A stretch of DNA of 64,000 bases, from positions 23,003-87,002 of the forward strand of contig JAKPUX010000233.1 in the NCBI GenBank assembly GCA_029554865.1, read 5' to 3'. Below the pieces are notes generated by a model. It did no database searches, was not told the origin of the DNA, and was given only the letters and a program-made list of their open reading frames with translations. The translations under genes and the position numbers were made by a program. Source of the stretch: a bacterium (GTDB lineage: Bacteria > Zhuqueibacterota > Zhuqueibacteria > Residuimicrobiales > Residuimicrobiaceae). Shown in pieces: positions 47,628 through 63,014 of the stretch (position 1 is its first letter; each line of letters starts with the position of its first letter).

Positions 47628-47656
47628 TTGAATGAATGGCAACGACTCGTTATATT
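47628..47656 (+). promoter_or_regulatory. sigma70-type promoter for the GT2-to-RtcB gene string
   Basis: TTGAAT (47628-47633), 17 nt, TATATT (47651-47656). AAGGAG RBS precedes ATG 47713. Confidence 0.5.
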
Positions 47657-47712: not shown

Positions 47713-49296
47713 ATGACCACCAAACTTTCCATTCTCTTTTACGCTTATCCGCAGCTGCCCTATGAAACCGAGTCCTTTGAAAAAATGCTCGCCTCCCTGC
47801 AGAACCAGTATGATCACAATTTTGAGGTGCTCCTTTTCGGCGACAACGACCAGGTGCGCAAACGCGCGGAAAAGGCCGGCTATATCTTCATCCCAACCGA
47901 CCTCGATCACAAGGCCAAGGCCCTGAACAGCGCCCTGCGTCAGGCCAGGGGGGAGTATGTGCTGATCTGCAACAACGCGGCCAATGCCCTGGAATTCAAG
48001 CGCTCCGCCACCAGGTTCTACGCGATGGCGATGGACCGCCATCCGGAGACCAGCATGCTTTATACAGACTATGACCTGATCGACAAGGGGGTGCGCAAGG
48101 AACGCAAACTGCTGGAATGGCACAACGGTCGTCTCACCGAGGCCTGGGATACCGGTTATTGTCTGCTCTTCAGCCGCGCCTTTCTGGAGAGGGTTGGCTT
48201 TTGCGACGAACACTACAGATTCAATCCCCTCAACGATCTCCGCTTCAAGGCGATGGAGACCGGCCGGATCATGCACATCTCCAACCGCTTCAACGGCGTC
48301 CCCTATCTGGCCTATGCCGCAGCTCAGGGGCTGGATGTCTTCGCCTATCTCAAAGCGGGCAAGGAGGTGCAGATCGAGAATGAGGTGATCGTCACCGAGC
48401 ATCTTAAACGCATCAAGGCCTATCTGGCCCCGGGCCAGAACTATCACCATGTCACCTACACCCCCGAGGAGGAGGAGTCCTTCAAGGCCGGTATCGCCTC
48501 AGTGGTGATCCCGGTCTTCAACCGTCCCGAGTTCATCGGCCCGGCGATCGAATCGGTGCAGGCCCAGACCGTACAGAATATCGAGATTGTCGTCGTCTGC
48601 AATGGCGGCGATGACGATCCGACCGTCCCGGAGGTTCGGCGCTACATGGCCGGCGGTGACAAGTATGACTCTCACAAGCCCCCGGTGCGCCTGATCATCC
48701 ACGATATGAACATCCTCGGGCTCTGCTTCAACGATGCCCTGCAAACCTCCCGGGCCAAGTATTACATGCAGCTCGATTCAGACGATCTGCTCTTTCCGGA
48801 GGCGGTCGAAAAGATCCTCAAGGTCTATGCGGAGGATGACCGCATCGGCATGGTGATCGGCTCCTATCAGGTCTATGAAAAGAAGGCGGATGGCCGGGTG
48901 GAGCCGGTCCTCAATGCAGAGGGCAAGCCCTTCATCGTCACTCATGACGAGTGGACCGAGGAAAATGGACGCAACAATCTGCTGCGCATCGGCGGCGCCG
49001 GCGCCCCGCGTTCGATCAAAATCAAGGTTCTGCAAGAGCTGGGCTGGTTCGGGATGAACGACTCCCCTTATTCCCGGAATTACGGGGAGGATTACGAGCT
49101 GGTGAACAAGTGCGCCGAGCGCTACCGCATCGGCCGTGTCTGGGATCCGATTTACAAGGTGGTCCGCCACGCCGGAGGGACCGACCATATGATCGACCAG
49201 GTCACCATCGACGTCAATGAAAACGCCAAAGATCACATGCGCCTGGTGGCCCTGCGGCGCCGGCAAAAAATTAACGGCATCGAACCGACGGCTTGA
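47713..49296 (+). CDS. two-domain GT2 glycosyltransferase
   Basis: Two GT-A modules: LSILFYAYPQ...SLQNQ at the N-terminus and ASVVIPVFNRPEFIGPAIESVQAQT...QLDSDD in the second half. Confidence 0.7.
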   Translation: MTTKLSILFYAYPQLPYETESFEKMLASLQNQYDHNFEVLLFGDNDQVRKRAEKAGYIFIPTDLDHKAKALNSALRQARGEYVLICNNAANALEFKRSATRFYAMAMDRHPETSMLYTDYDLIDKGVRKERKLLEWHNGRLTEAWDTGYCLLFSRAFLERVGFCDEHYRFNPLNDLRFKAMETGRIMHISNRFNGVPYLAYAAAQGLDVFAYLKAGKEVQIENEVIVTEHLKRIKAYLAPGQNYHHVTYTPEEEESFKAGIASVVIPVFNRPEFIGPAIESVQAQTVQNIEIVVVCNGGDDDPTVPEVRRYMAGGDKYDSHKPPVRLIIHDMNILGLCFNDALQTSRAKYYMQLDSDDLLFPEAVEKILKVYAEDDRIGMVIGSYQVYEKKADGRVEPVLNAEGKPFIVTHDEWTEENGRNNLLRIGGAGAPRSIKIKVLQELGWFGMNDSPYSRNYGEDYELVNKCAERYRIGRVWDPIYKVVRHAGGTDHMIDQVTIDVNENAKDHMRLVALRRRQKINGIEPTA

Positions 49297-49311
49297 TCGA
49301 GGGGGAGGCCC

Positions 49312-50676
49312 ATGCCCGAGCTTAAAAATTTGATGATATCGGTCTCCGGGGTCCGCGGCATCATCGGCGACGGCCTGACGCCGGAGGTCGCTCTGCACTT
49401 CGCCCAGGCTTATGGCAGCCAATTCGGTCCCGGCCGCATCGTTGTCGGTCGCGATTCGCGGGTGACCGGGGAGCTGGTGAAATATGCGGTCTGGGCGGGG
49501 CTGCTCTCCACTGGCTGTGATGTGGTCGACATCGGCATGGCAACCACGCCGACCACCGCCATGGCCACAGAGAGGGCTGAAAACGCCGGCGGCATCATCA
49601 TCACCGCCAGCCACAATCCCCGCGAATGGAACGCCCTCAAACTGCTGGCCCGTGACGGCCTCTTCCTGAGTCCGGAAGCGGGGGCAGAGATCCTCGAGCG
49701 GGTCAGGCAGCAGGATTTCCGCTTTGTAGCGTGGGACAAGGTGGGCAGGGTCATCCCCCATCCTGCCGCAGCCAAGGAGCATCTCGATGCGGTCGCCGGG
49801 CTGGAGCTGGTCGATGTCGATTTGATCCGTAAACGCCGTTTCAGGGTTGTCGCAGATCCCTGCAATGGCGCGGGCGGAACGATACTGCCGCAGCTGTTCG
49901 ACCGCCTCGGGTGTGAGGCCTTCTTCCTCAACCTCGAACCCCACGGGCGCTTTCCGCGCAGCCCTGAACCCCTCGCCGCCAACCTCGGTGAACTCTGCGC
50001 CGCAGTGACCGCTCACGGCGCCGACCTCGGCATCGCCGTCGATCCGGATGTGGATCGCCTCGCCCTGGTCTCCAACAGGGGGATTCCCCTCGGCGAGGAG
50101 TACACCCTCGGGCTGGCTACCGACTTTGTCCTTTCCCACACCCCGGGCGAGGTGGCTGTCAACGCCTCCACCTCCCTGGTGATCGACGATATCGCCGCCC
50201 GTTACGGCAGCCGGGTCCACCGCACCCCTGTCGGCGAGATCCATGTCGCCACCAAGGCCCGGACAACCGGCGCAGTCATCGCCGGCGAAGGCAACGGCGG
50301 GGTGATCTATCCGGCCCTCCACCTCGGCCGCGACGCCATCGTCGGCATCGCCCTGGTCTTGCAATCGCTGGCGGAGAAGGAGAAATCACTCGCCGAACTT
50401 CAGTCCGACTTGCCGCAGTATGTCATGGTCAAGGACAAGATCGCCCTCCCCTTCGACGCCGACGCCAAGGCCATGGTGGCCCGCCTGATCCAGAAACACG
50501 CCGGCGACAAGGTCGACTTGACCGATGGTCTCAAATTTCTCTACGATCACGCCTGGGTCCACATCCGGGCCTCCAACACCGAACCGATCATCCGCGTCAT
50601 CGCCGAGGCCCGCAGCGAAGAAGAGGCGCGCCGGCGCGTGGACGCCCTCAAACAGGAATTCGCCAGTTTGCAGTGA
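49312..50676 (+). CDS. alpha-D-phosphohexomutase (phosphoglucosamine mutase / phosphomannomutase type)
   Basis: Phosphoserine loop TASHNPREWNALK, metal loop GIAVDPDVDRL, about 450 aa. Confidence 0.82.
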   Translation: MPELKNLMISVSGVRGIIGDGLTPEVALHFAQAYGSQFGPGRIVVGRDSRVTGELVKYAVWAGLLSTGCDVVDIGMATTPTTAMATERAENAGGIIITASHNPREWNALKLLARDGLFLSPEAGAEILERVRQQDFRFVAWDKVGRVIPHPAAAKEHLDAVAGLELVDVDLIRKRRFRVVADPCNGAGGTILPQLFDRLGCEAFFLNLEPHGRFPRSPEPLAANLGELCAAVTAHGADLGIAVDPDVDRLALVSNRGIPLGEEYTLGLATDFVLSHTPGEVAVNASTSLVIDDIAARYGSRVHRTPVGEIHVATKARTTGAVIAGEGNGGVIYPALHLGRDAIVGIALVLQSLAEKEKSLAELQSDLPQYVMVKDKIALPFDADAKAMVARLIQKHAGDKVDLTDGLKFLYDHAWVHIRASNTEPIIRVIAEARSEEEARRRVDALKQEFASLQ

Positions 50677-50698
50677 TAGAAGAAAACGAGAGGTTATT

Positions 50699-53092
50699 AT
50701 GGCCGATTTTGAAAAGCTTGGGATGTTTTATCTCGGCAAGGAATATGACACGGAGAAGAAGCAGCTTCTCGACAGCCACACCCTGTACGACTCCAAGGAC
50801 CTGGTCACGCACGGCGTCTGCATCGGCATGACCGGCAGCGGCAAGACCGGTCTCTGCATCTCCCTGCTGGAAGAGGCCGCCATCGACAATATCCCGGCCC
50901 TGATCGTTGATCCCAAGGGGGACATGACCAATCTCCTCCTCACCTTTCCCGGACTCTCGGCGGCCGAATTCGCTCCCTGGATCAACGAGGACGATGCCCG
51001 CCGTGAGAATAAAACCCCCGAGGAATATGCCACCGGCCAGGCGGAACTCTGGAAAAAGGGGTTGGAACAGTGGGGCGAAGATGGCGCACGCATTCAGCGC
51101 CTCCGTGACGCCGCCAATTTCACCATCTTCACTCCCGGCAGCACCGCCGGCGTCCCGATCTCTATCCTGAGCAGTTTCGCCTGCCCTTCGGAGGAGACCA
51201 TGCTCGACCGCGAAGCGGTCGGCGATCTCATCTCCTCCACCGTGACCAGTTTGCTCGGCCTTATCGGCATCGCTGCGGATCCGGTCAAAAGCCGGGAGCA
51301 CATTCTACTCTCCAACATTATCGATCACTCCTGGCAGCAGGGCAAGGAGCTAGACCTGGCCGGCCTGATCACCGCCATTCAAAATCCCCCATTCGAGAGG
51401 GTCGGCGCCTTTGCCGTGGATGCCTTTTATCCCGCCAAGGAGCGTTTTGAACTCGCCATCAGCCTCAACAACCTCCTCGCCGCACCGGGCTTTTCCACCT
51501 GGTTGAGCGGCGAGCCCTTGGACATCAGCCGCCTGCTCTATACCGAGAGCGGCAAGCCGCGCCACTCGATCTTTTACATCGCCCACCTCAGCGATTCCGA
51601 GCGGATGTTCTTCGTCACCCTGCTCTTTAACCAGATGGTGTCGTGGATGCGCAGCCAGCCCGGCACCACCAGCCTGCGCGCCCTCCTCTACATGGACGAA
51701 GTGGCCGGCTACCTGCCGCCAGTGGCGGCGCCCCCGTCCAAAAAGCCGCTGATGATCATGCTTAAACAGGCCCGCGCCTTCGGCGTCGGGGTCCTCCTGG
51801 CCACGCAGAACCCGGTCGACCTCGATTACAAGGCTCTTTCCAATACCGGCACCTGGTTCATCGGCCGTCTGCAGACCCAGCAGGATATCGAAAAGGTGGT
51901 GGAGGGGCTGCGCTCCGGCGCCGGCGACCTCGATCCCCGCATCACCCGCGCCCTCTCCGCCCTGGGCAAGCGGGTCTTTCTGATGAAAAACATCCACGAG
52001 AGCGATCCGGTCATTTTTCAGACGCGCTGGGCCCTCTCCTATCTGCGCGGACCCCTGACCCTCGCCCAGATCAAAAAACTGCCGGCGCCCGCCAGCACAG
52101 CCCAGGCCCGGGCGGCCGTCAACCAGAAGGCTGCTGGCTTCGGGACCGATGCCGAAGGAAGGCCGGCGCTGCCGCCTCAGATCCCGGAGTATTTCGCCCC
52201 CCTGCGGGGCGCCCTCAGGCCGGAGGCCACCCTGCTCTACAGACCGGGGGTGCTCGGACTTGCCGACGTCGCCTTTGTGCCGGGCGAATCCCAACGCTTC
52301 GGACGCATCGCCTGGCTCGAGGAGGGCCCGATGCCGGTCGATTGGGAACAGGCCGTCGAAGCCCCCTTCTCCGAGGACGATCTCGAAAGGAATCCCGAAG
52401 AAAACGGCGCTTTTGCCAAACTCGCCGCTCCGGCCTCCCGGCCCGAGAGCTACCCCGCCTGGGCTAAAAGCTTCGCCGATGCCATCTATCGCACCTCCAA
52501 GCTGGAACTCTACACCAGCACCTCGCTCAAGTTAACCTCCCAACCGGGCGAGTCAGAGCGCGATTTTCGCATCCGCATCAGTCAGCTTGCCCGGGAAAAA
52601 CGCGATGACGCTATCGACCAGCTGCGCAAGCGCTATGCCACCAAGTCGGCGACACTGCAGGACCGCAAAATGCGCGCAGAACAAAAGGTGGCCAAAGAGA
52701 AGAACGATTATCACTCCCAGACCATGTCGACCGCGGTATCGGTGGGGGCGACCATCCTCGGCGCCTTCTTCGGCCGCAAAAAGCTCTCCGCCACCACCCT
52801 GAACAAGGCGGGTACGGTCATCCGCAAGGGCATGCGTACAACCCAGGAACGCAGCGATATCCAGAACGCCGAGGAGAGCCTTGAGGTCATCAACCAGCGC
52901 CTGGCGGATCTGGAACAAGAGCTCAATCAGGAGATCGCCCGCATCGAGGAACAGACCGATCCCATGCAGCAGCCCCTCGAGGTGGTGGCCATGCGTCCGA
53001 AAAAGGGTGATATCAACGTCCGTCTCACCGCCTTGATCTGGCTGCCCTATTGGCAGACAAACGATGGCAAGAGGGAGCCCTCTTACCTGTAG
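50699..53092 (+). CDS. HerA/FtsK-superfamily (DUF87/DUF853-like) P-loop ATPase with C-terminal coiled-coil extension
   Basis: Walker A GMTGSGKTG followed by PALIVDPKGDM, Walker B ALLYMDEVAGY, and the LLATQNPVDLD sensor region. The C-terminal 180 aa or so has heptad-like charged repeats around a Gly-rich hydrophobic stretch. Start is ATG 50699 after GAGAGG; the ORF-track 5' extension overlaps the mutase gene. Confidence 0.65.
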   Translation: MADFEKLGMFYLGKEYDTEKKQLLDSHTLYDSKDLVTHGVCIGMTGSGKTGLCISLLEEAAIDNIPALIVDPKGDMTNLLLTFPGLSAAEFAPWINEDDARRENKTPEEYATGQAELWKKGLEQWGEDGARIQRLRDAANFTIFTPGSTAGVPISILSSFACPSEETMLDREAVGDLISSTVTSLLGLIGIAADPVKSREHILLSNIIDHSWQQGKELDLAGLITAIQNPPFERVGAFAVDAFYPAKERFELAISLNNLLAAPGFSTWLSGEPLDISRLLYTESGKPRHSIFYIAHLSDSERMFFVTLLFNQMVSWMRSQPGTTSLRALLYMDEVAGYLPPVAAPPSKKPLMIMLKQARAFGVGVLLATQNPVDLDYKALSNTGTWFIGRLQTQQDIEKVVEGLRSGAGDLDPRITRALSALGKRVFLMKNIHESDPVIFQTRWALSYLRGPLTLAQIKKLPAPASTAQARAAVNQKAAGFGTDAEGRPALPPQIPEYFAPLRGALRPEATLLYRPGVLGLADVAFVPGESQRFGRIAWLEEGPMPVDWEQAVEAPFSEDDLERNPEENGAFAKLAAPASRPESYPAWAKSFADAIYRTSKLELYTSTSLKLTSQPGESERDFRIRISQLAREKRDDAIDQLRKRYATKSATLQDRKMRAEQKVAKEKNDYHSQTMSTAVSVGATILGAFFGRKKLSATTLNKAGTVIRKGMRTTQERSDIQNAEESLEVINQRLADLEQELNQEIARIEEQTDPMQQPLEVVAMRPKKGDINVRLTALIWLPYWQTNDGKREPSYL

Positions 53093-53147
53093 AGAAACGG
53101 CGCCAGCGGCACTGGCCGGGCCGCCCTCTCTCAAGGAAGGAAAGACC

Positions 53148-53591
53148 ATGCAGAATATCAAAGATCTCTCCGGGATGACCTACAAAATCATCGACCACAC
53201 CGCCGACGTCGGACTCGAACTGGAGGCCGCGACCCTGTCCGGGCTCTTTACCGCTGCGGCGGATGGTCTGATGCATATCATCTGCCCCCGATGCCTTATT
53301 CAGCCCGTCCAGAGCCATGCCCTGCAGGTTTGCGGAGAAAACCTTGAAGAACTGCTGGTCAACTGGCTCTCCGAGTTGAACTACCTTTGCCAGGTGCAGC
53401 ACTTTCTCACCGCCAGGGTTCAGATCAGGGAGATCCAGGAGCGCTTTCTGCAGGCCGAAGTGACAGGCGAGAGAAGCGACCCCCTCCGTCACGCTGTGCG
53501 CAGTGAGATCAAGGCCGTAACCTACCACCGGATCGAGGTTCATCAGGAGGCGGCGGATAAGTGGCGTGGCCGCATCTACTTCGATATCTGA
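53148..53591 (+). CDS. archease (RtcB activator)
   Basis: YKIIDHTADVGLE N-terminal signature and C-terminal IKAVTYHRIEV; about 147 aa. RBS AAGGAAGG. Confidence 0.85.
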   Translation: MQNIKDLSGMTYKIIDHTADVGLELEAATLSGLFTAAADGLMHIICPRCLIQPVQSHALQVCGENLEELLVNWLSELNYLCQVQHFLTARVQIREIQERFLQAEVTGERSDPLRHAVRSEIKAVTYHRIEVHQEAADKWRGRIYFDI

Positions 53592-53634
53592 GCGCAGACA
53601 TACCCGGCCGCTCCGTCACAACAGGAGCGTAACC

Positions 53635-55074
53635 ATGTCAACCCCCATTGATCGCATCACCGATTATCTCTTCGAAATCCCCCAAACCGGCAAGATGCGG
53701 GTCCCCGCCCGCATCTATGCCACCGCAAACATGCTCCCCGATATCCTCAAGGACCGCGCCGCCGAACAGGCCGCCCAGGTCGCCTGGCTGCCGGGCATCG
53801 TGGGCTATTCCTATGCCATGCCCGACGTCCATTGGGGCTACGGCTTTCCCATCGGCGGCGTCGCCGCCTTTGATATGGATAAGGGGATCATCTCCCCCGG
53901 CGGGGTGGGCTACGACATTAACTGCGGCGTCCGCCTGCTGCGAACCGGCCTCCAGCGCAGCGAGATCGAATCGCGGCTGCGGCCGGCTGTGGAAGCCCTC
54001 TTCCGTGCCATCCCGAGCGGAGTGGGATCCACCGGCAAGCTGAAGCTGAACGAGAAGGAGGAAAAACGGGTCCTGGAAAATGGCGCACTCTGGGCTGTGC
54101 GAAATGGCTACGGCGGCGAGGAGGATCTGGACAAGATCGAGGAAAACGGGAGGATGGCCGGAGCCGACCCGGACCAGATCAGCGCACGAGCACGCGAAAG
54201 GGGGCGCAGCCAGCTCGGGACCCTGGGTTCGGGCAACCATTTTATCGAACTGGGGGTGGTCGATGAGATCTATGATCCCCGGGCCGCGGCGGCCATGGGA
54301 CTAAGGCTTGACCAAATCACCCTCTTCATCCATACCGGCTCGCGCGGCCTCGGCCATCAGGTCTGCGATGATGCCATCAAGGAGATGCTGCATGCCGCGC
54401 AGAAATACGGCATCGAGCTGCCGGACCGGCAGCTTTGCTGTGCGCCTATCTCCTCACCTGAAGGCCAGCGCTACCTGGCGGCGATGTCCGCCGCAGTCAA
54501 TTTCGCCTTTGCCAACCGCCAGATGATCACCCATTGGGCGCGTGAAGCCCTGATGCAGGCCTGGAGCATCTCTCCGCGCGACCTGGACCTGCAGGTCGTT
54601 TACGAGGTCGCGCATAACATCGCCAAGGTCGAAAGGCACACCGTCGCCGGTGTCGAGCGCCCCCTTTGCGTCCACCGCAAGGGGGCGACCCGGGCCTTCG
54701 GTCCCCATCATCCCGAAATCCCTGCAGCCTATCGGGAGATCGGCCAGCCTGTGCTCATCCCCGGGGATATGGGGCGCTGCTCCTATCTGCTGACCGGTAC
54801 AACCAGGGCGATGAGTGACAGCTTTGGATCAGCCTGCCACGGCGCTGGCCGGGTGATGAGCCGAACCCAGGCGGTCAAATCGGCACGGGGGCGTTCGGTG
54901 GTGCGCGAGCTGGCGGAGCGCGGCATCCTGGTCCGCGCCGAAAGCAGTGAAACCATCGCCGAAGAGATTCCCGAAGCCTACAAGAACGTCACTCAGGTAG
55001 TCGACGCCGTCGCCGGCGCCGGCCTGGCCTGCAAGGTGGCTAAATTAAAACCCCTGGGCGTCATCAAGGGCTGA
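53635..55074 (+). CDS. rtcB: RNA 3'-phosphate ligase RtcB
   Basis: DVHWGYGFPIGG, GYDINCG, GSGNHFIE, HTGSRGLGHQ and CHGAGR motifs; about 479 aa. Start is ATG 53635 after AGGAGCG. Confidence 0.95.
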   Translation: MSTPIDRITDYLFEIPQTGKMRVPARIYATANMLPDILKDRAAEQAAQVAWLPGIVGYSYAMPDVHWGYGFPIGGVAAFDMDKGIISPGGVGYDINCGVRLLRTGLQRSEIESRLRPAVEALFRAIPSGVGSTGKLKLNEKEEKRVLENGALWAVRNGYGGEEDLDKIEENGRMAGADPDQISARARERGRSQLGTLGSGNHFIELGVVDEIYDPRAAAAMGLRLDQITLFIHTGSRGLGHQVCDDAIKEMLHAAQKYGIELPDRQLCCAPISSPEGQRYLAAMSAAVNFAFANRQMITHWAREALMQAWSISPRDLDLQVVYEVAHNIAKVERHTVAGVERPLCVHRKGATRAFGPHHPEIPAAYREIGQPVLIPGDMGRCSYLLTGTTRAMSDSFGSACHGAGRVMSRTQAVKSARGRSVVRELAERGILVRAESSETIAEEIPEAYKNVTQVVDAVAGAGLACKVAKLKPLGVIKG

Positions 55075-55215
55075 TGCGTTCAGGGCGGAAAGAGCACGGA
55101 GGGATTGGGTGCGCAGCGTCAGAAGCAGGTGGAAACGAGATTTCGGGGGAGGGGAGACAGCGCCAGATGTCAGATGGGAACCAGCTTTCGGGGTACTCCC
55201 TGGCGGAAATAGCTG

Positions 55216-55244
55216 TTGACTTTTAATGTACAGCATTTTATATT
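55216..55244 (+). promoter_or_regulatory. near-consensus sigma70-type promoter in an AT-rich island
   Basis: TTGACT (55216-55221), 17 nt, TATATT (55239-55244). The next ORF start is about 265 nt downstream. Confidence 0.5.
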
Positions 55245-55514
55245 TTAACACACCCCGTTGTTATCGCCGTGGCTCGTATAATCTTGCAGTTCCGGCTTGC
55301 GGCCGATTCTATATATTATCTTCTCACTTGTGTCAGGCAGAACGAAAGATCTTGGGTAAGCCTGAATTCCTCAAAATTCCAGTAGACCCGTCGGTACAAT
55401 CCATATCGAACACTTTTCCATTCCTCGCCACCGCGCCTTCCCGCTCTGTCCGCGCCGCCAGGTGAAGAGGAAGCCAGCGGCTGTATCCCGCAAGCTGCAC
55501 AAGGAGTCTTGAGC

Positions 55515-56024
55515 ATGGCCTTTCCATCTTCAACTGCTAGCCCCCTGCAGTCCCTCACGGACAAGATCGGCGGATTTTGCGGATATGAAAAATCCGCCAC
55601 CAGGGAACCATCCGATCTCAACCTGCGCCGCTTCCTCATCGCCGGAATCGATGCCCGCCTGAAGGATCTCGAGGAGATCCCGTCGGCCGCGATCGAGGAG
55701 GATCAGCGTCTCCTCCTGGAGGTCACCAAAAGCACCCGGCGCAAGCTCATCACCATCAGCGAAAGCCTGAGCGCCCCCACCTACGCCGGTCAGGACTTTT
55801 TCACCCGGGACCACATTGCTGAAAAGAGAGTGGCTGGCCTTTACACCCTCGAAAAGTCCATGCTTGACGAACTTGCCGACATCCAGCTTGAACTCGCGGC
55901 CTTTCAGGCCGGTCCCATCGACAAGATCACGATCGAAGACCATTTTCTCCATATCTCCGATTCGATCGATAATCTGAACCAGGCCCTTTTTGAACGTGAG
56001 TGCCTGATTCTTGGCGATCAGTAG
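55515..56024 (+). CDS. hypothetical protein (predicted helical)
   Basis: About 169 aa from ATG 55515, which lies 8 nt after AAGGAG (ORF-track start is TTG 55509). No motif recognised. Confidence 0.5.
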   Translation: MAFPSSTASPLQSLTDKIGGFCGYEKSATREPSDLNLRRFLIAGIDARLKDLEEIPSAAIEEDQRLLLEVTKSTRRKLITISESLSAPTYAGQDFFTRDHIAEKRVAGLYTLEKSMLDELADIQLELAAFQAGPIDKITIEDHFLHISDSIDNLNQALFERECLILGDQ

Positions 56025-60439: not shown

Positions 60440-62071
60440 TCACGCCTTTATTCTGATTAGCGACTGGTCATAGTCGGCCGGGGCCTCATATCCCAAAAGA
60501 TTGAACAGCGTGGCGGCGATGTTGCTCAAACCCTGATTGGCCAGCCCGGCCAACTCGTACTCCCCGGCATATTCCGGATCGACGATGACAAAGGGGACCG
60601 GATTGAGGGTGTGGGCGGTCTTGACCGACTTGACGCCCTTCTTCACTGTGAACATCTCGTCGGCATTGCCGTGGTCGGCGGTGACGACGGCAATACCCCT
60701 GAGCTCACGAACCAGCTGCAGCAGCACTCCGACGCACTCGTCAACGGTCTCCACCGCCTCGATCGCCGCCTCCATGATTCCGGTGTGACCGACCATGTCG
60801 CCGTTGGCAAAGTTGACCCGGCCGAAGCGGAACCGCCCGCTGCGCAGAAGTGCCCCGGCCTGCTCAGCGATCTCAACGGCCTTCATCTTCGGGGCCTTGT
60901 CGAACTGAATCCTGTCCGAGGGGATCTCGACAAATTTTTCCAGCTTTTCATCGATATAACCGGAGCGATTGCCGTTCCAGAAATAGGTCACATGCCCGTA
61001 CTTCTGGGTCTCCGAAAGAGCAAAGGAGGTGACCCCGGCCGCGCAAAGATATTCAGAAAGGACGCGATCGATTTCAGGCGGCGAAACCAGGTATTTGTGC
61101 GGGATGTGCAGGTCGCCGTCATACTCCATCATTCCGGCATAGAGCACATCGGGGCTGCGCTCGCGGTTAAAAGCATTAAAATCCCGCTCATCAAAAGCGC
61201 GCGAGATCTCGATGGCGCGATCACCACGAAAATTGAAATTCACCACGCCATCGCCGTCCTGGATGGTCCCAACCGGTTTTCCTGCGGCATCGACGATGAC
61301 AAAGGCGGGGAGGTACTGATCTGTCGCCTCGGCATCCTCAGCGTACATGCTCTCCACTGCCTCGGCGGCCGAGGAGAAGCCCCGGGCCCGGCCGAGGACG
61401 TGGGCATCCCAGCCGCGCTTGACCACTGTCCAGTCGGCGTTATAGCGGTCCATCGTCGTCACCATGCGCCCGCCTCCCGAAGCGATGCGAAAATCGCATC
61501 CCTGCTCCTGGTTGAGACGGGTGAGCAGCTCTTCGGTCTGTTGGATATAGGTGAGCGCAGTCCTGGCCCCGACATCGCGGCCATCGAGGAGTATATGCAG
61601 GCGCACCCGCCGCACACCCTCTTCCACGCAGTTTTCAAGCAGGGCAAAGAGCTGTCTGATATTGGAGTGAACATTCCCGTCCGAGAGCAGGCCGATGAAA
61701 TGCAGGGTTTTCCCGCTCTTGCCGCGACCGACCAACTCCTGCCAGATCCCGGTGGTGAAGATCTTCCCGCTGGCTATCGAGCCGTCCACGAGCTTGGCTC
61801 CCTGGGCGAAGACGCGCCCGGCACCGATTGCGTTGTGGCCCACCTCGCTGTTGCCCATATCCTCATCGGTGGGCAGGCCAACGGCGGTGCCGTGAGCCTT
61901 GAGACGGGTGAAAAAACGGCTGCGCAACAGTTCGTCCAGAACCGGCGTCCTGGCCATAAAGACCGCATTGGTTTCGTCTTCCCGGCCCAGGCCGACGCCA
62001 TCCATAATGATGAGCAGCAGGGGGCCGGGCCGGCCGGAAAAATGGGCGAGCTTTTTCAGTTGCAGATCCAT
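60440..62071 (-). CDS. gpmI: 2,3-bisphosphoglycerate-independent phosphoglycerate mutase
   Basis: LIIMDGVGLG and NSEVGHNAIGAGR (catalytic Ser region), and TADHGNAD near the C-terminus; 543 aa. Confidence 0.9.
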   Translation of the reverse strand: MDLQLKKLAHFSGRPGPLLLIIMDGVGLGREDETNAVFMARTPVLDELLRSRFFTRLKAHGTAVGLPTDEDMGNSEVGHNAIGAGRVFAQGAKLVDGSIASGKIFTTGIWQELVGRGKSGKTLHFIGLLSDGNVHSNIRQLFALLENCVEEGVRRVRLHILLDGRDVGARTALTYIQQTEELLTRLNQEQGCDFRIASGGGRMVTTMDRYNADWTVVKRGWDAHVLGRARGFSSAAEAVESMYAEDAEATDQYLPAFVIVDAAGKPVGTIQDGDGVVNFNFRGDRAIEISRAFDERDFNAFNRERSPDVLYAGMMEYDGDLHIPHKYLVSPPEIDRVLSEYLCAAGVTSFALSETQKYGHVTYFWNGNRSGYIDEKLEKFVEIPSDRIQFDKAPKMKAVEIAEQAGALLRSGRFRFGRVNFANGDMVGHTGIMEAAIEAVETVDECVGVLLQLVRELRGIAVVTADHGNADEMFTVKKGVKSVKTAHTLNPVPFVIVDPEYAGEYELAGLANQGLSNIAATLFNLLGYEAPADYDQSLIRIKA

Positions 62072-62261: not shown

Positions 62262-63014
62262 ATGACCTACAAAGATATCCTTCCCCTTGTCCATAAAAAT
62301 GACGAAAAAATCCTGCTGATCCTGCTCGGCGGCGTTGGCGGCATCCAATCCGGCCCCAATCTGCTCACCGAACTGCAGCAGGCGCATCGTCCCCACCTCA
62401 ACGCCCTGGCGCGCAAATCGGCCTGCGGTTTGCTTTTGCCGGTCGCTCCGGGCGTGACCCCTGCCGCCGATGCTGCCCTGAGACGCATGCTCGGCTGGGA
62501 AGAGGAGCAGGCCCCGACCTGGACGAGCGGGCTCGGGCTTGCAAGCTGCGCCCTCTCCGCCTCTCCGGAGTATCTCGCTCTCTTCACACAAGCCGGCATC
62601 AACGCCATCGCTTCGCCCGACGAGCCGGCAGGGTTGATCGACCGGGCCTGCGCCGAAATCTTGAAACACGACATGGTCATCCTCCACTATGCCGCCCCCG
62701 AAAAAGAAGGGCTGGCCGGCGGTTATTATGAGAAAATCAAGGCCATCGAGGATCTGGATCGTTTGATCCCGCAGCTTCTGGAATCCGCACCGGCCGTCGT
62801 CGCCGTCTGCGGCGACCACTCCTGCCCGAGTGCCCTGGGCGCGATCTCCTGGCACCCCGTGCCCCTTTTAATCCATGCCCTTACGGCACGTTATGACATG
62901 GTCCAAACCTACGATGAAATCGCCTGTACCGCCGGTGCCCTTGGCACGCTCCGCAGTGCCGAGCTGCTCCCCCTCCTGCTCGCCCATGCAGGAAAACTGG
63001 GCCCGGCACACTAG
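62262..63014 (+). CDS. shortened ApgM-like (archaeal-type iPGM/alkaline-phosphatase-core) protein with degenerate active-site residues
   Basis: LLILLGGVGG occupies the place of ApgM ...IDGLGD. AADAAL occupies the place of GSDTAHL. C-terminal CGDHSCP...WHPVPLLI is retained. At 250 aa versus about 400 aa it lacks the inserted cap domain. Confidence 0.45.
   Translation: MTYKDILPLVHKNDEKILLILLGGVGGIQSGPNLLTELQQAHRPHLNALARKSACGLLLPVAPGVTPAADAALRRMLGWEEEQAPTWTSGLGLASCALSASPEYLALFTQAGINAIASPDEPAGLIDRACAEILKHDMVILHYAAPEKEGLAGGYYEKIKAIEDLDRLIPQLLESAPAVVAVCGDHSCPSALGAISWHPVPLLIHALTARYDMVQTYDEIACTAGALGTLRSAELLPLLLAHAGKLGPAH

Follow-up and report, generated by a model that had tools for sequence, protein, structure and literature searches.

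Archease activates the guanylylation of RtcB (PMC3973293), and the gene pair that encodes archease and the ligase depending on it has been described as a 'tRNA splicing operon' (PMC3973293, PMC4604427). In metazoans, RTCB works in complex with the DDX1 helicase (PMC8668186). Here, we describe a locus of a KSB1-like bacterium in which the archease and rtcB genes follow the gene of a 797-residue ATPase with a HerA-type fold. It lies in a 64,000-nucleotide (nt) stretch of contig JAKPUX010000233.1 (the window), where the three genes are read from the + strand in the order ATPase, archease, RtcB, with gaps of exactly 55 and 43 nt (Table 1). A preliminary description of this DNA had given the same gene lengths and gaps, the common direction and the absence of a terminator until past rtcB, all of which hold in the open reading frame (ORF) coordinates, and had proposed that the trio might be a novel RNA-repair or conflict module. 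We found no HerA-RtcB-archease link described for prokaryotes, in line with its statement that no such combination was known; the RNA-repair survey of Burroughs and Aravind (2016), which lay outside our literature search, might mention one.

The reading that we favor, with moderate confidence, is that the locus is an operon specific to its lineage and probably co-transcribed, in which a canonical archease-RtcB pair has been joined to a self-sufficient HerA/YjgR-like ATPase, the three proteins forming no dedicated machine. As it does elsewhere, archease-activated RtcB would seal RNA breaks in which a 5'-OH end faces one with a 2',3'-cyclic phosphate or a 3'-phosphate. For its part, the ATPase, presumably an ATP-driven hexameric translocase, would keep the role that its family has in the roughly 90% of genomes where its gene stands alone. 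The adjacency would then go back to one historical insertion next to archease that was retained as an operon, and the three genes might share their regulation, for which a dedicated physical machine would not be required.

The linkage census and the trees carry this reading. We gathered 168 loci of the ATPase from genome and metagenome collections and by exact-protein look-ups, with a sampling that leaned to the better-scoring members of the family, and examined their flanks up to 6-10 kb. Of these loci, 150 were informative, their sequence running on for 600 nt or more past the ATPase gene. Archease or RtcB was found near the ATPase in 12 of the 150, which represent the window and nine other distinct ATPase sequences, and neither gene was found in the other 138. 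The unlinked loci came from Nitrospira, Acidobacteriota, Chloroflexota, Gemmatimonadota, Planctomycetota and other KSB1, and three further ATPase loci that we looked up likewise showed no link to RtcB or archease. The preliminary description had named the absence of linkage in other genomes as the finding that would speak against a module, and this is largely what the neighborhoods of the orthologues show.

In a maximum-likelihood tree of 163 ATPases, every linked locus falls inside one 15-leaf clade (support 1.0) on a long stem (0.39). The clade consists of three well-supported groups, the order of which the tree does not resolve (support 0.095). One comprises seven loci with the order GT2-mutase-ATPase-archease-RtcB (GT2 being a family-2 glycosyltransferase gene), and another comprises three loci (L086, L087 and L092) in which a 233-residue Metalloenzyme-family gene precedes ATPase-archease-RtcB. 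The third group is made up of five Acidobacterial loci, four of them without RtcB or archease and one with too little downstream sequence. The RtcB proteins of the linked loci also form one clade (0.886), apart from those of three other KSB1 genomes. Because the linked ATPases form one clade and the linked RtcBs form one clade, the trees indicate that the linkage arose once, and on this evidence a single origin accounts for all linked loci.

We then looked at the residues that set the linked ATPases apart. There are 14 alignment columns at which the two sets, linked group and main family, each reach 90% conservation or more with a different residue. The five Acidobacterial members of the clade carry the linked-group residue at 14 of these 14 columns, so that at conserved columns no substitution is specific to the linked ATPases. 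Since clade members that lack the RtcB link share all of the substitutions, the differences track ancestry rather than partnership with RtcB. The Acidobacterial group (L003, L004, L006, L085 and L091, of which four are named Acidobacteriota and L091 is an unlabelled metagenome contig) sits inside the KSB1-like clade with support 1.0, which suggests that the ATPase gene has moved horizontally, by itself, between the two phyla.

Judged by their sequences, archease and RtcB of the window are a canonical and intact pair. Archease, with its IDHTADVG motif where it had been reported, matches Pfam PF01951 over its full length (8e-38) and the Pyrococcus horikoshii archease 4n2p at 1.4e-12. RtcB matches Pfam PF01139 over its full length (7e-177) and falls under the cutoff for the Escherichia coli-type model. 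Its residues 2-479 align with P. horikoshii RtcB (1uc2) at ~1e-175 (1.2e-175), with about 60% identity, and the closest homologues (63-70% identity) are labelled candidate division KSB1 by their sources. The metal-binding and guanylylation residues Asp95, Cys98, Asn202, His203, His234, His329 and His404 (P. horikoshii numbering) are kept, as are the motifs GYDINCGVR, GSGNHF, HTGSRGLGH, VAHNI and CHGAGR in the comparison with 1uc2. The full set of ligase motifs noticed earlier is thus borne out at the catalytic positions (DxxC, NH, H, H and H-GAGR), and the protein is, by alignment, an archaeal/eukaryal-type 3'-phosphate/5'-hydroxyl RNA ligase of the archease-dependent type with a complete active site. 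In length and motifs, neither protein can be told apart from its unlinked KSB1 homologues.

The ATPase has a HerA/FtsK-type ASCE (additional strand, catalytic E) P-loop core with intact Walker motifs, and the quoted motifs GMTGSGKTG, LLYMDEVAGY and LLATQNPVDLD are all located as stated in the preliminary description. LLATQNPVDLD falls where HerA/FtsK proteins have the 'SQRP/TQRP' sensor strand, has N instead of R, and aligns with 'LVSQRPSEID' of 8wiv. The protein had also been called DUF87/DUF853-like. This assignment stands as far as the fold is concerned and is only partly reflected in Pfam, the matches of which are borderline and confined to the P-loop: HerA_C, the top match, scored 22.8 bits for a cutoff of 22 and aligned over profile positions 22-64 of 502 only, and DUF87, with 22.4 bits for a gathering threshold of 23.2, aligned with ATPase residues 32-80 only. 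A profile of the family matched the HerA chain 8wiv at 5e-8 among PDB sequences. Foldseek searches with an AlphaFold2 (AF2) model built on 89 sequences (predicted local distance difference test, pLDDT, 82) returned HerA chains for all of the top 50 matches (2e-15 to 6e-11), with HerA-NurA at 2e-15; a first model made from 20 sequences (pLDDT 66), which had a poor ATPase core, was replaced by this one.

Because Walker A begins at residue 43, the ATPase lacks the N-terminal HAS barrel; in the model, only a beta-hairpin (strands 9-17 and 22-31) lies ahead of it. The arms of the modelled C-terminal hairpin are formed by helices 620-681 and 708-752, and its tip, which is modelled with low confidence, carries a Gly-rich, hydrophobic and basic segment, TAVSVGATILGAFFGRKK (52730-52783). 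In this tip, G683 and G692 are invariant among the 89 family members, and R693 and K694 are nearly so.

The family to which the ATPase belongs is, from sequence comparisons, very large, uncharacterized and collinear over the full length, including the beta domain and the Gly-rich hydrophobic hairpin tip. More than 8,000 word-sharing matches were found. Among representatives of 50%-identity clusters, 7,855 match the ATPase at E<=1e-3, 2,255 at E<=1e-30 and 150 at E<=1e-165, the latter mostly aligned over nearly the full length. Identities of 50-60% across residues 1-797 extend to at least six phyla, with members in Nitrospira, Acidobacteriota, Chloroflexota, Gemmatimonadota, Planctomycetota, Dadabacteria and KSB1. 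Our literature search found no functional study of this family or of YjgR/DUF853; the profile searches called for by the preliminary description led to HerA chains in the PDB and borderline HerA_C and DUF87 matches, with no family of described role.

The neighbors of the ATPase in other genomes were also inspected. When the ORFs within 6 kb of the ATPase were clustered for 80 genome loci, the only recurrent ones encoded a generic response regulator and a UvrA-like ABC protein, and no neighbor was conserved across phyla. In Nitrospira (about 30 loci, and also L170:2891-8484 and L171:1-8439), the ATPase gene is preceded on its strand by that of an 835-residue UvrA-like ABC protein. We rejected it as a family-wide partner: its confinement to Nitrospira and its variable distance from the ATPase (gaps from 45 nt to 5.4 kb) mark it as lineage synteny. 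In L170 and L171, the gene of a 109-residue DMT_6 membrane protein directly precedes that of the ATPase.

Within its own clade, the trio behaves as a unit. The gene order is kept while the identity drops to 60% for the ATPase and to 35-41% for archease. The ATPase/archease and archease/RtcB gaps are 55 and 43 nt in the window, 7 and 11 nt in L081, -8 and 21 nt in L082, and -23 and 10 nt in L087; in L086, the only ATPase/archease junction overlaps by 17 nt, and in L002 the start codon of archease directly abuts the ATPase stop codon. In the latter locus (L002:12389-14744), the gene of a 150-residue NUDIX hydrolase lies between archease and RtcB, the order being otherwise undisturbed. The trio has also shifted as a block: the iPGM and Metalloenzyme genes lie directly before the ATPase in L087 and L092 and downstream of rtcB in the window. 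In the sister sub-clade, the Metalloenzyme gene directly precedes the ATPase gene with a 29-nt gap, and for this reason it probably shows where the trio lay ancestrally.

Contigs assembled from complementary DNA (cDNA) metatranscriptomes of anaerobic digesters cover all five genes of the block from GT2 to rtcB at low depth (2-5x). One of them (52807-53172) bridges the ATPase/archease junction, two others (53427-53674 and 53511-53661, from runs X31 and X38) bridge the archease/RtcB junction, and a contig of run X33 starts in the latter gap, at 53593. Another (50648-50836) crosses the boundary between the mutase and ATPase genes. Runs X25 and X26 (window positions 48421-56000), which are labelled metatranscriptomic, were rejected as expression evidence; they gave contigs of uniform depth, up to 9.9 kb long, over convergent genes, as DNA would. 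The retention of the trio through rearrangement and Nudix insertion, its tight or overlapping junctions and the bridging RNA contigs thus indicate a real gene cluster that is probably co-transcribed.

Three KSB1 loci with RtcB and without the ATPase were available for comparison. In L172 (5986-8985), archease, a 136-residue gene product of PDDEXK_3 nuclease fold and RtcB are encoded in a row, followed directly by a Phd/ParE-type toxin-antitoxin pair. In L173 (3416-10218), from the KSB1 metagenome-assembled genome GCA_003854975.1, the order is iPGM-aminotransferase-archease-SNF2 helicase-RtcB. This helicase has 1,046 residues and the bacterial domain set SNF2_assoc, SNF2-rel_dom and Helicase_C; its gene is flanked by gaps of 11 and 19 nt, and 5 nt past RtcB begins the gene of a 590-residue protein without Pfam match. 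RtcB stands alone in L174. As the inserts differ among loci, the archease-RtcB operon of KSB1 is a variable platform, which tends to sit near iPGM, and L173 may represent a separate arrangement of a motor with RtcB.

Several points weigh against the favored reading of a self-sufficient ATPase. The trio has stayed intact while archease diverged to 35-41% identity, through rearrangement and insertion and with overlapping stop and start codons, a persistence beyond that usual for unrelated neighbors. The presence in L173 of a different motor dependent on nucleoside triphosphates (NTP), SNF2, between archease and RtcB hints that motors are recruited for a reason; it is the strongest argument for such recruitment, though an anecdotal one with three KSB1 loci. 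The partnership of metazoan RTCB with the DDX1 helicase (PMC8668186) would point the same way by analogy. As to co-transcription, the RNA contigs are of low depth, assembled and unstranded, and may include DNA carry-over.

These points bring up the possibility of a dedicated motor-ligase module for RNA repair, in which a HerA-type hexamer would thread or unwind broken tRNA, rRNA or mRNA, or strip protein off it, and pass the ends to archease-activated RtcB; the module would be the analogue in bacteria of the tRNA ligase complex that contains DDX1 and RTCB. We regard this as rather unlikely. It would account for the conservation of the trio as a unit through rearrangement and Nudix insertion, the overlaps of -23, -17 and -8 nt in L087, L086 and L082, the RNA contigs over both junctions, the long stem (0.39) of the ATPase clade with its support of 1.0 and the SNF2 helicase in the sister KSB1 locus L173, and it has a eukaryotic precedent in the helicase partner of RTCB (PMC8668186, PMC12135372). 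However, the linkage has a single evolutionary origin and is missing from 138 of the 150 orthologue loci, every clade-specific substitution of the ATPase is also present in unlinked Acidobacterial members, neither RtcB nor archease stands out from unlinked KSB1 homologues by its length or motifs, and the characterized HerA-clade motors in the list of structure matches all act on DNA. The RNA-repair module of the preliminary description thus gains from the recurrence of the trio in nine further distinct relatives and loses by the single origin, the 138 unlinked loci and the absence of a link-specific substitution. In a broader version, for which we see little probability, the archease-RtcB pair of KSB1-like bacteria would have recruited NTP-driven motors as partners, a HerA-type ring here and SNF2 in the sister locus, yielding a bacterial counterpart of DDX1-RTCB.

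Instead, the ATPase might act together with the sugar genes upstream of it, which are GT2, the GlmM-like mutase gene and the two divergent genes for a GlgC-like protein and a GHMP kinase. It could, for instance, drive the export or assembly of a glycan while docked on the membrane, with archease and RtcB as passengers. The gaps of 15 and 22 nt that join GT2, mutase and ATPase, the conservation of the five-gene block in seven relatives and the RNA contig over the mutase/ATPase boundary would fit, and so would a hairpin tip whose hydrophobic and basic residues might attach to a membrane. Yet L086, L087 and L092 keep the trio behind the 233-residue Metalloenzyme-family gene rather than behind GT2 and the mutase, and no glycan genes recur beside the ATPase in other phyla, which makes this explanation very improbable. 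GT2 is conserved in the inner sub-clade only, being present upstream in L001, L002 and L081-L084 and not in L086, L087 or L092. GT2 and the GlmM-like gene are dispensable, since the sister clade has a different upstream gene and yet keeps the trio. The preliminary description had described these two genes and their 15-22 nt gaps correctly, and its caveat that the linkage may be operonic happenstance holds for them and not for the trio, which is kept.

We give hardly any credence to the idea that the locus is a HerA-scaffold system of anti-phage defence or conflict, the RtcB of which would mend RNA damaged by the cell itself or by a toxin. The best structural neighbors of the ATPase include the SIR2-HerA and DUF4297-HerA defence complexes, and PADLOC gave weak partial matches to HerA models (1e-8, residues 312-402) and to mad8 (1e-10, residues 12-85), but these span P-loop or sensor segments only. 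No effector gene (NurA, SIR2, DUF4297 or another nuclease) lies beside the ATPase, either in the flanks within the window or in any of the 174 loci that we inspected. Homologues of the ATPase family are absent from 50,697 phage records, and 72,556 plasmids gave only 3 remote matches (23-27% identity). Across phyla, the family keeps an identity of about 50%, unlike fast-evolving defence genes, and its synteny is vertical. With no homologues in phages, almost none on plasmids and housekeeping neighbors, nothing marks the ATPase as a conflict module, and this part of the earlier proposal falls.

The limits of the transcription unit can be outlined from the sequence and the RNA contigs (Table 1). 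The promoter candidate ahead of the five-gene block, present as first described, is a consensus match only, and the sigma-70 consensus may not be that of KSB1-like bacteria. No terminator-like hairpin is found in any intergenic gap of the block, and the depth of the RNA contigs shifts downstream of about 55100; the weak hairpin past rtcB is the probable end of the unit. The AT-rich spacer 55075-55514 that follows rtcB contains, at 55216-55244, the region's best promoter-like site (TTGACT-17-TATATT, 10/12). The cDNA contig depth past rtcB is 6.8-12x, compared with 2-5x across the operon, and on account of this higher depth a 171-residue ORF (55509-56024) is apparently a separate, more strongly expressed unit.

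All four PGM_PMM Pfam domains were found in the mutase, the gene of which lies 15 nt from GT2 and 22 nt from the ATPase. A cDNA contig of run X31 matches 49048-49302 and departs from the window precisely within the GT2/mutase spacer, where 66 nt of unrelated sequence follow; it probably represents a strain variant with a different junction between the two genes. The flanks in the window also hold divergent GlgC-like and GHMP kinase genes, an NtrC-type regulator gene with a REC domain, a histidine kinase gene, a transketolase homologue (assigned via the Pfam matches of its relatives), iPGM and a Metalloenzyme-family gene.

Table 1. Positions of the genes, protein motifs and candidate signals of the locus in the window.
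Feature	Coordinates	Strand	Description
Promoter candidate, sigma-70-like	47628..47656	+	ahead of the five-gene block; TTGAAT-17-TATATT, 9/12 matches
GT2	47713..49296	+	527 aa, family-2 glycosyltransferase; Pfam PF00535, 2.8e-25; first gene of the co-directional block
GlmM-like mutase	49312..50676	+	454 aa, archaeal-type phosphoglucosamine/phosphohexose mutase; NCBIfam TIGR03990 Arch_GlmM, 1.2e-155, over its cutoff
ATPase	50699..53092	+	797 aa, HerA-fold (YjgR/DUF853-like) P-loop protein; C-terminal beta domain and long helical hairpin; ATG 50699 preceded by GAGAGG; stop at 53092
Walker A, GMTGSGKTG	50825..50851	+	residues 43-51, only ~35 residues from the N terminus; invariant in 89 family members
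Walker B, LLYMDEVAGY	51683..51712	+	residues 329-338; D333 and E334 invariant in the 89 members
LLATQNPVDLD	51794..51826	+	residues 366-376; T369, Q370 and N371 invariant in the 89 members
C-terminal module	52154..53092	+	residues 486-797; beta-rich domain and helical hairpin with ~60 residues per arm (AF2 model)
Archease	53148..53591	+	147 aa; ATG 53148; Shine-Dalgarno AAGGAAGGAAAG
RtcB	53635..55074	+	479 aa; ATG 53635; Shine-Dalgarno AGGAG
Weak terminator-like hairpin	55293..55305	+	AT-rich spacer after rtcB; first on the + strand past the block
iPGM	60440-62071		with the Metalloenzyme gene, 5-8 kb downstream of rtcB in the window
Metalloenzyme-superfamily gene	62262-63014 (also L087:7270-7971)		short protein, 233-250 aa; divergent from iPGM

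If the ATPase works with RtcB, a HerA-clade motor would for the first time be connected with RNA repair, and one of the larger uncharacterized families of bacterial ATPases would gain a testable function. Recruitment of motors by archease-RtcB, if true, would similarly provide the first functional clue, RNA or ribonucleoprotein remodelling, to an orphan ring-ATPase family of at least 2,255 clusters at 50% identity. As the evidence stands, archease-RtcB in one candidate phylum is a variable platform that carries the ATPase, Nudix, PDDEXK_3 or SNF2 depending on the genome, and any deduction of the ATPase function from its neighbors rests on a single evolutionary event.

Of the known translocases, those of the HerA type (HerA-NurA of archaea and Deinococcus, SIR2-HerA/Nezha and DUF4297-HerA) share the fold of the ATPase core with Foldseek E values of 2e-15 to 1e-11 and a probability of 1.0, and their Walker A, Walker B and sensor strands align with its own. 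In contrast, the identity is only 12-17%, TQNP takes the place of SQRP, the stretch ahead of Walker A is limited to about 35 residues in place of the N-terminal HAS barrel of HerA, there is no partner gene for a nuclease or SIR2, and the C-terminal beta domain and hairpin add about 310 residues. YjgR/DUF853 (PF05872 HerA_C; E. coli, PDB 11kk) resembles the ATPase in having its P-loop near the N terminus and in being functionally uncharacterized. Its structure entry matched the profile of the ATPase family weakly (E 0.025-0.087) and over short segments only, and the ATPase family is about 300 residues longer, with a conserved tail of its own; YjgR/DUF853 is thus, by sequence, a sister family at best.

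With the bacterial Rtc system (RtcR-RtcB-RtcA) and with RtcB2-PrfH, the window has an RtcB-family ligase in common, and no RtcA, PrfH or Ro gene occurs in its flanks. Sigma-54 control of the Rtc kind was rejected, as the neighboring sigma-54 activator has a REC domain and not a CARF domain; a scan for sigma-54 promoters (TGGCAC-N5-TTGC) gave 32 matches for 30.6 expected, which is chance level. The metazoan tRNA ligase complex (RTCB, DDX1, FAM98B, CGI-99, Ashwin and archease) offers a conceptual parallel in its combination of RtcB and archease with an NTP-driven motor (PMC8668186, PMC12135372), but DDX1 is a superfamily 2 DEAD-box protein rather than an ASCE ring of the HerA clade, so that the likeness to the trio is by analogy only. 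Among the closest described arrangements is also the archease-RtcB operon of P. horikoshii and diverse bacteria (Desai et al. 2014, PMC3973293; PMC4604427), with which the window shares an archease gene immediately upstream of that for a 479-residue archaeal-type RtcB on the same strand. The window differs from it by the additional gene of the HerA-fold ATPase in front, itself placed behind GT2 and the mutase, and its relatives differ by the Nudix, PDDEXK_3 or SNF2 genes that they carry between archease and RtcB.

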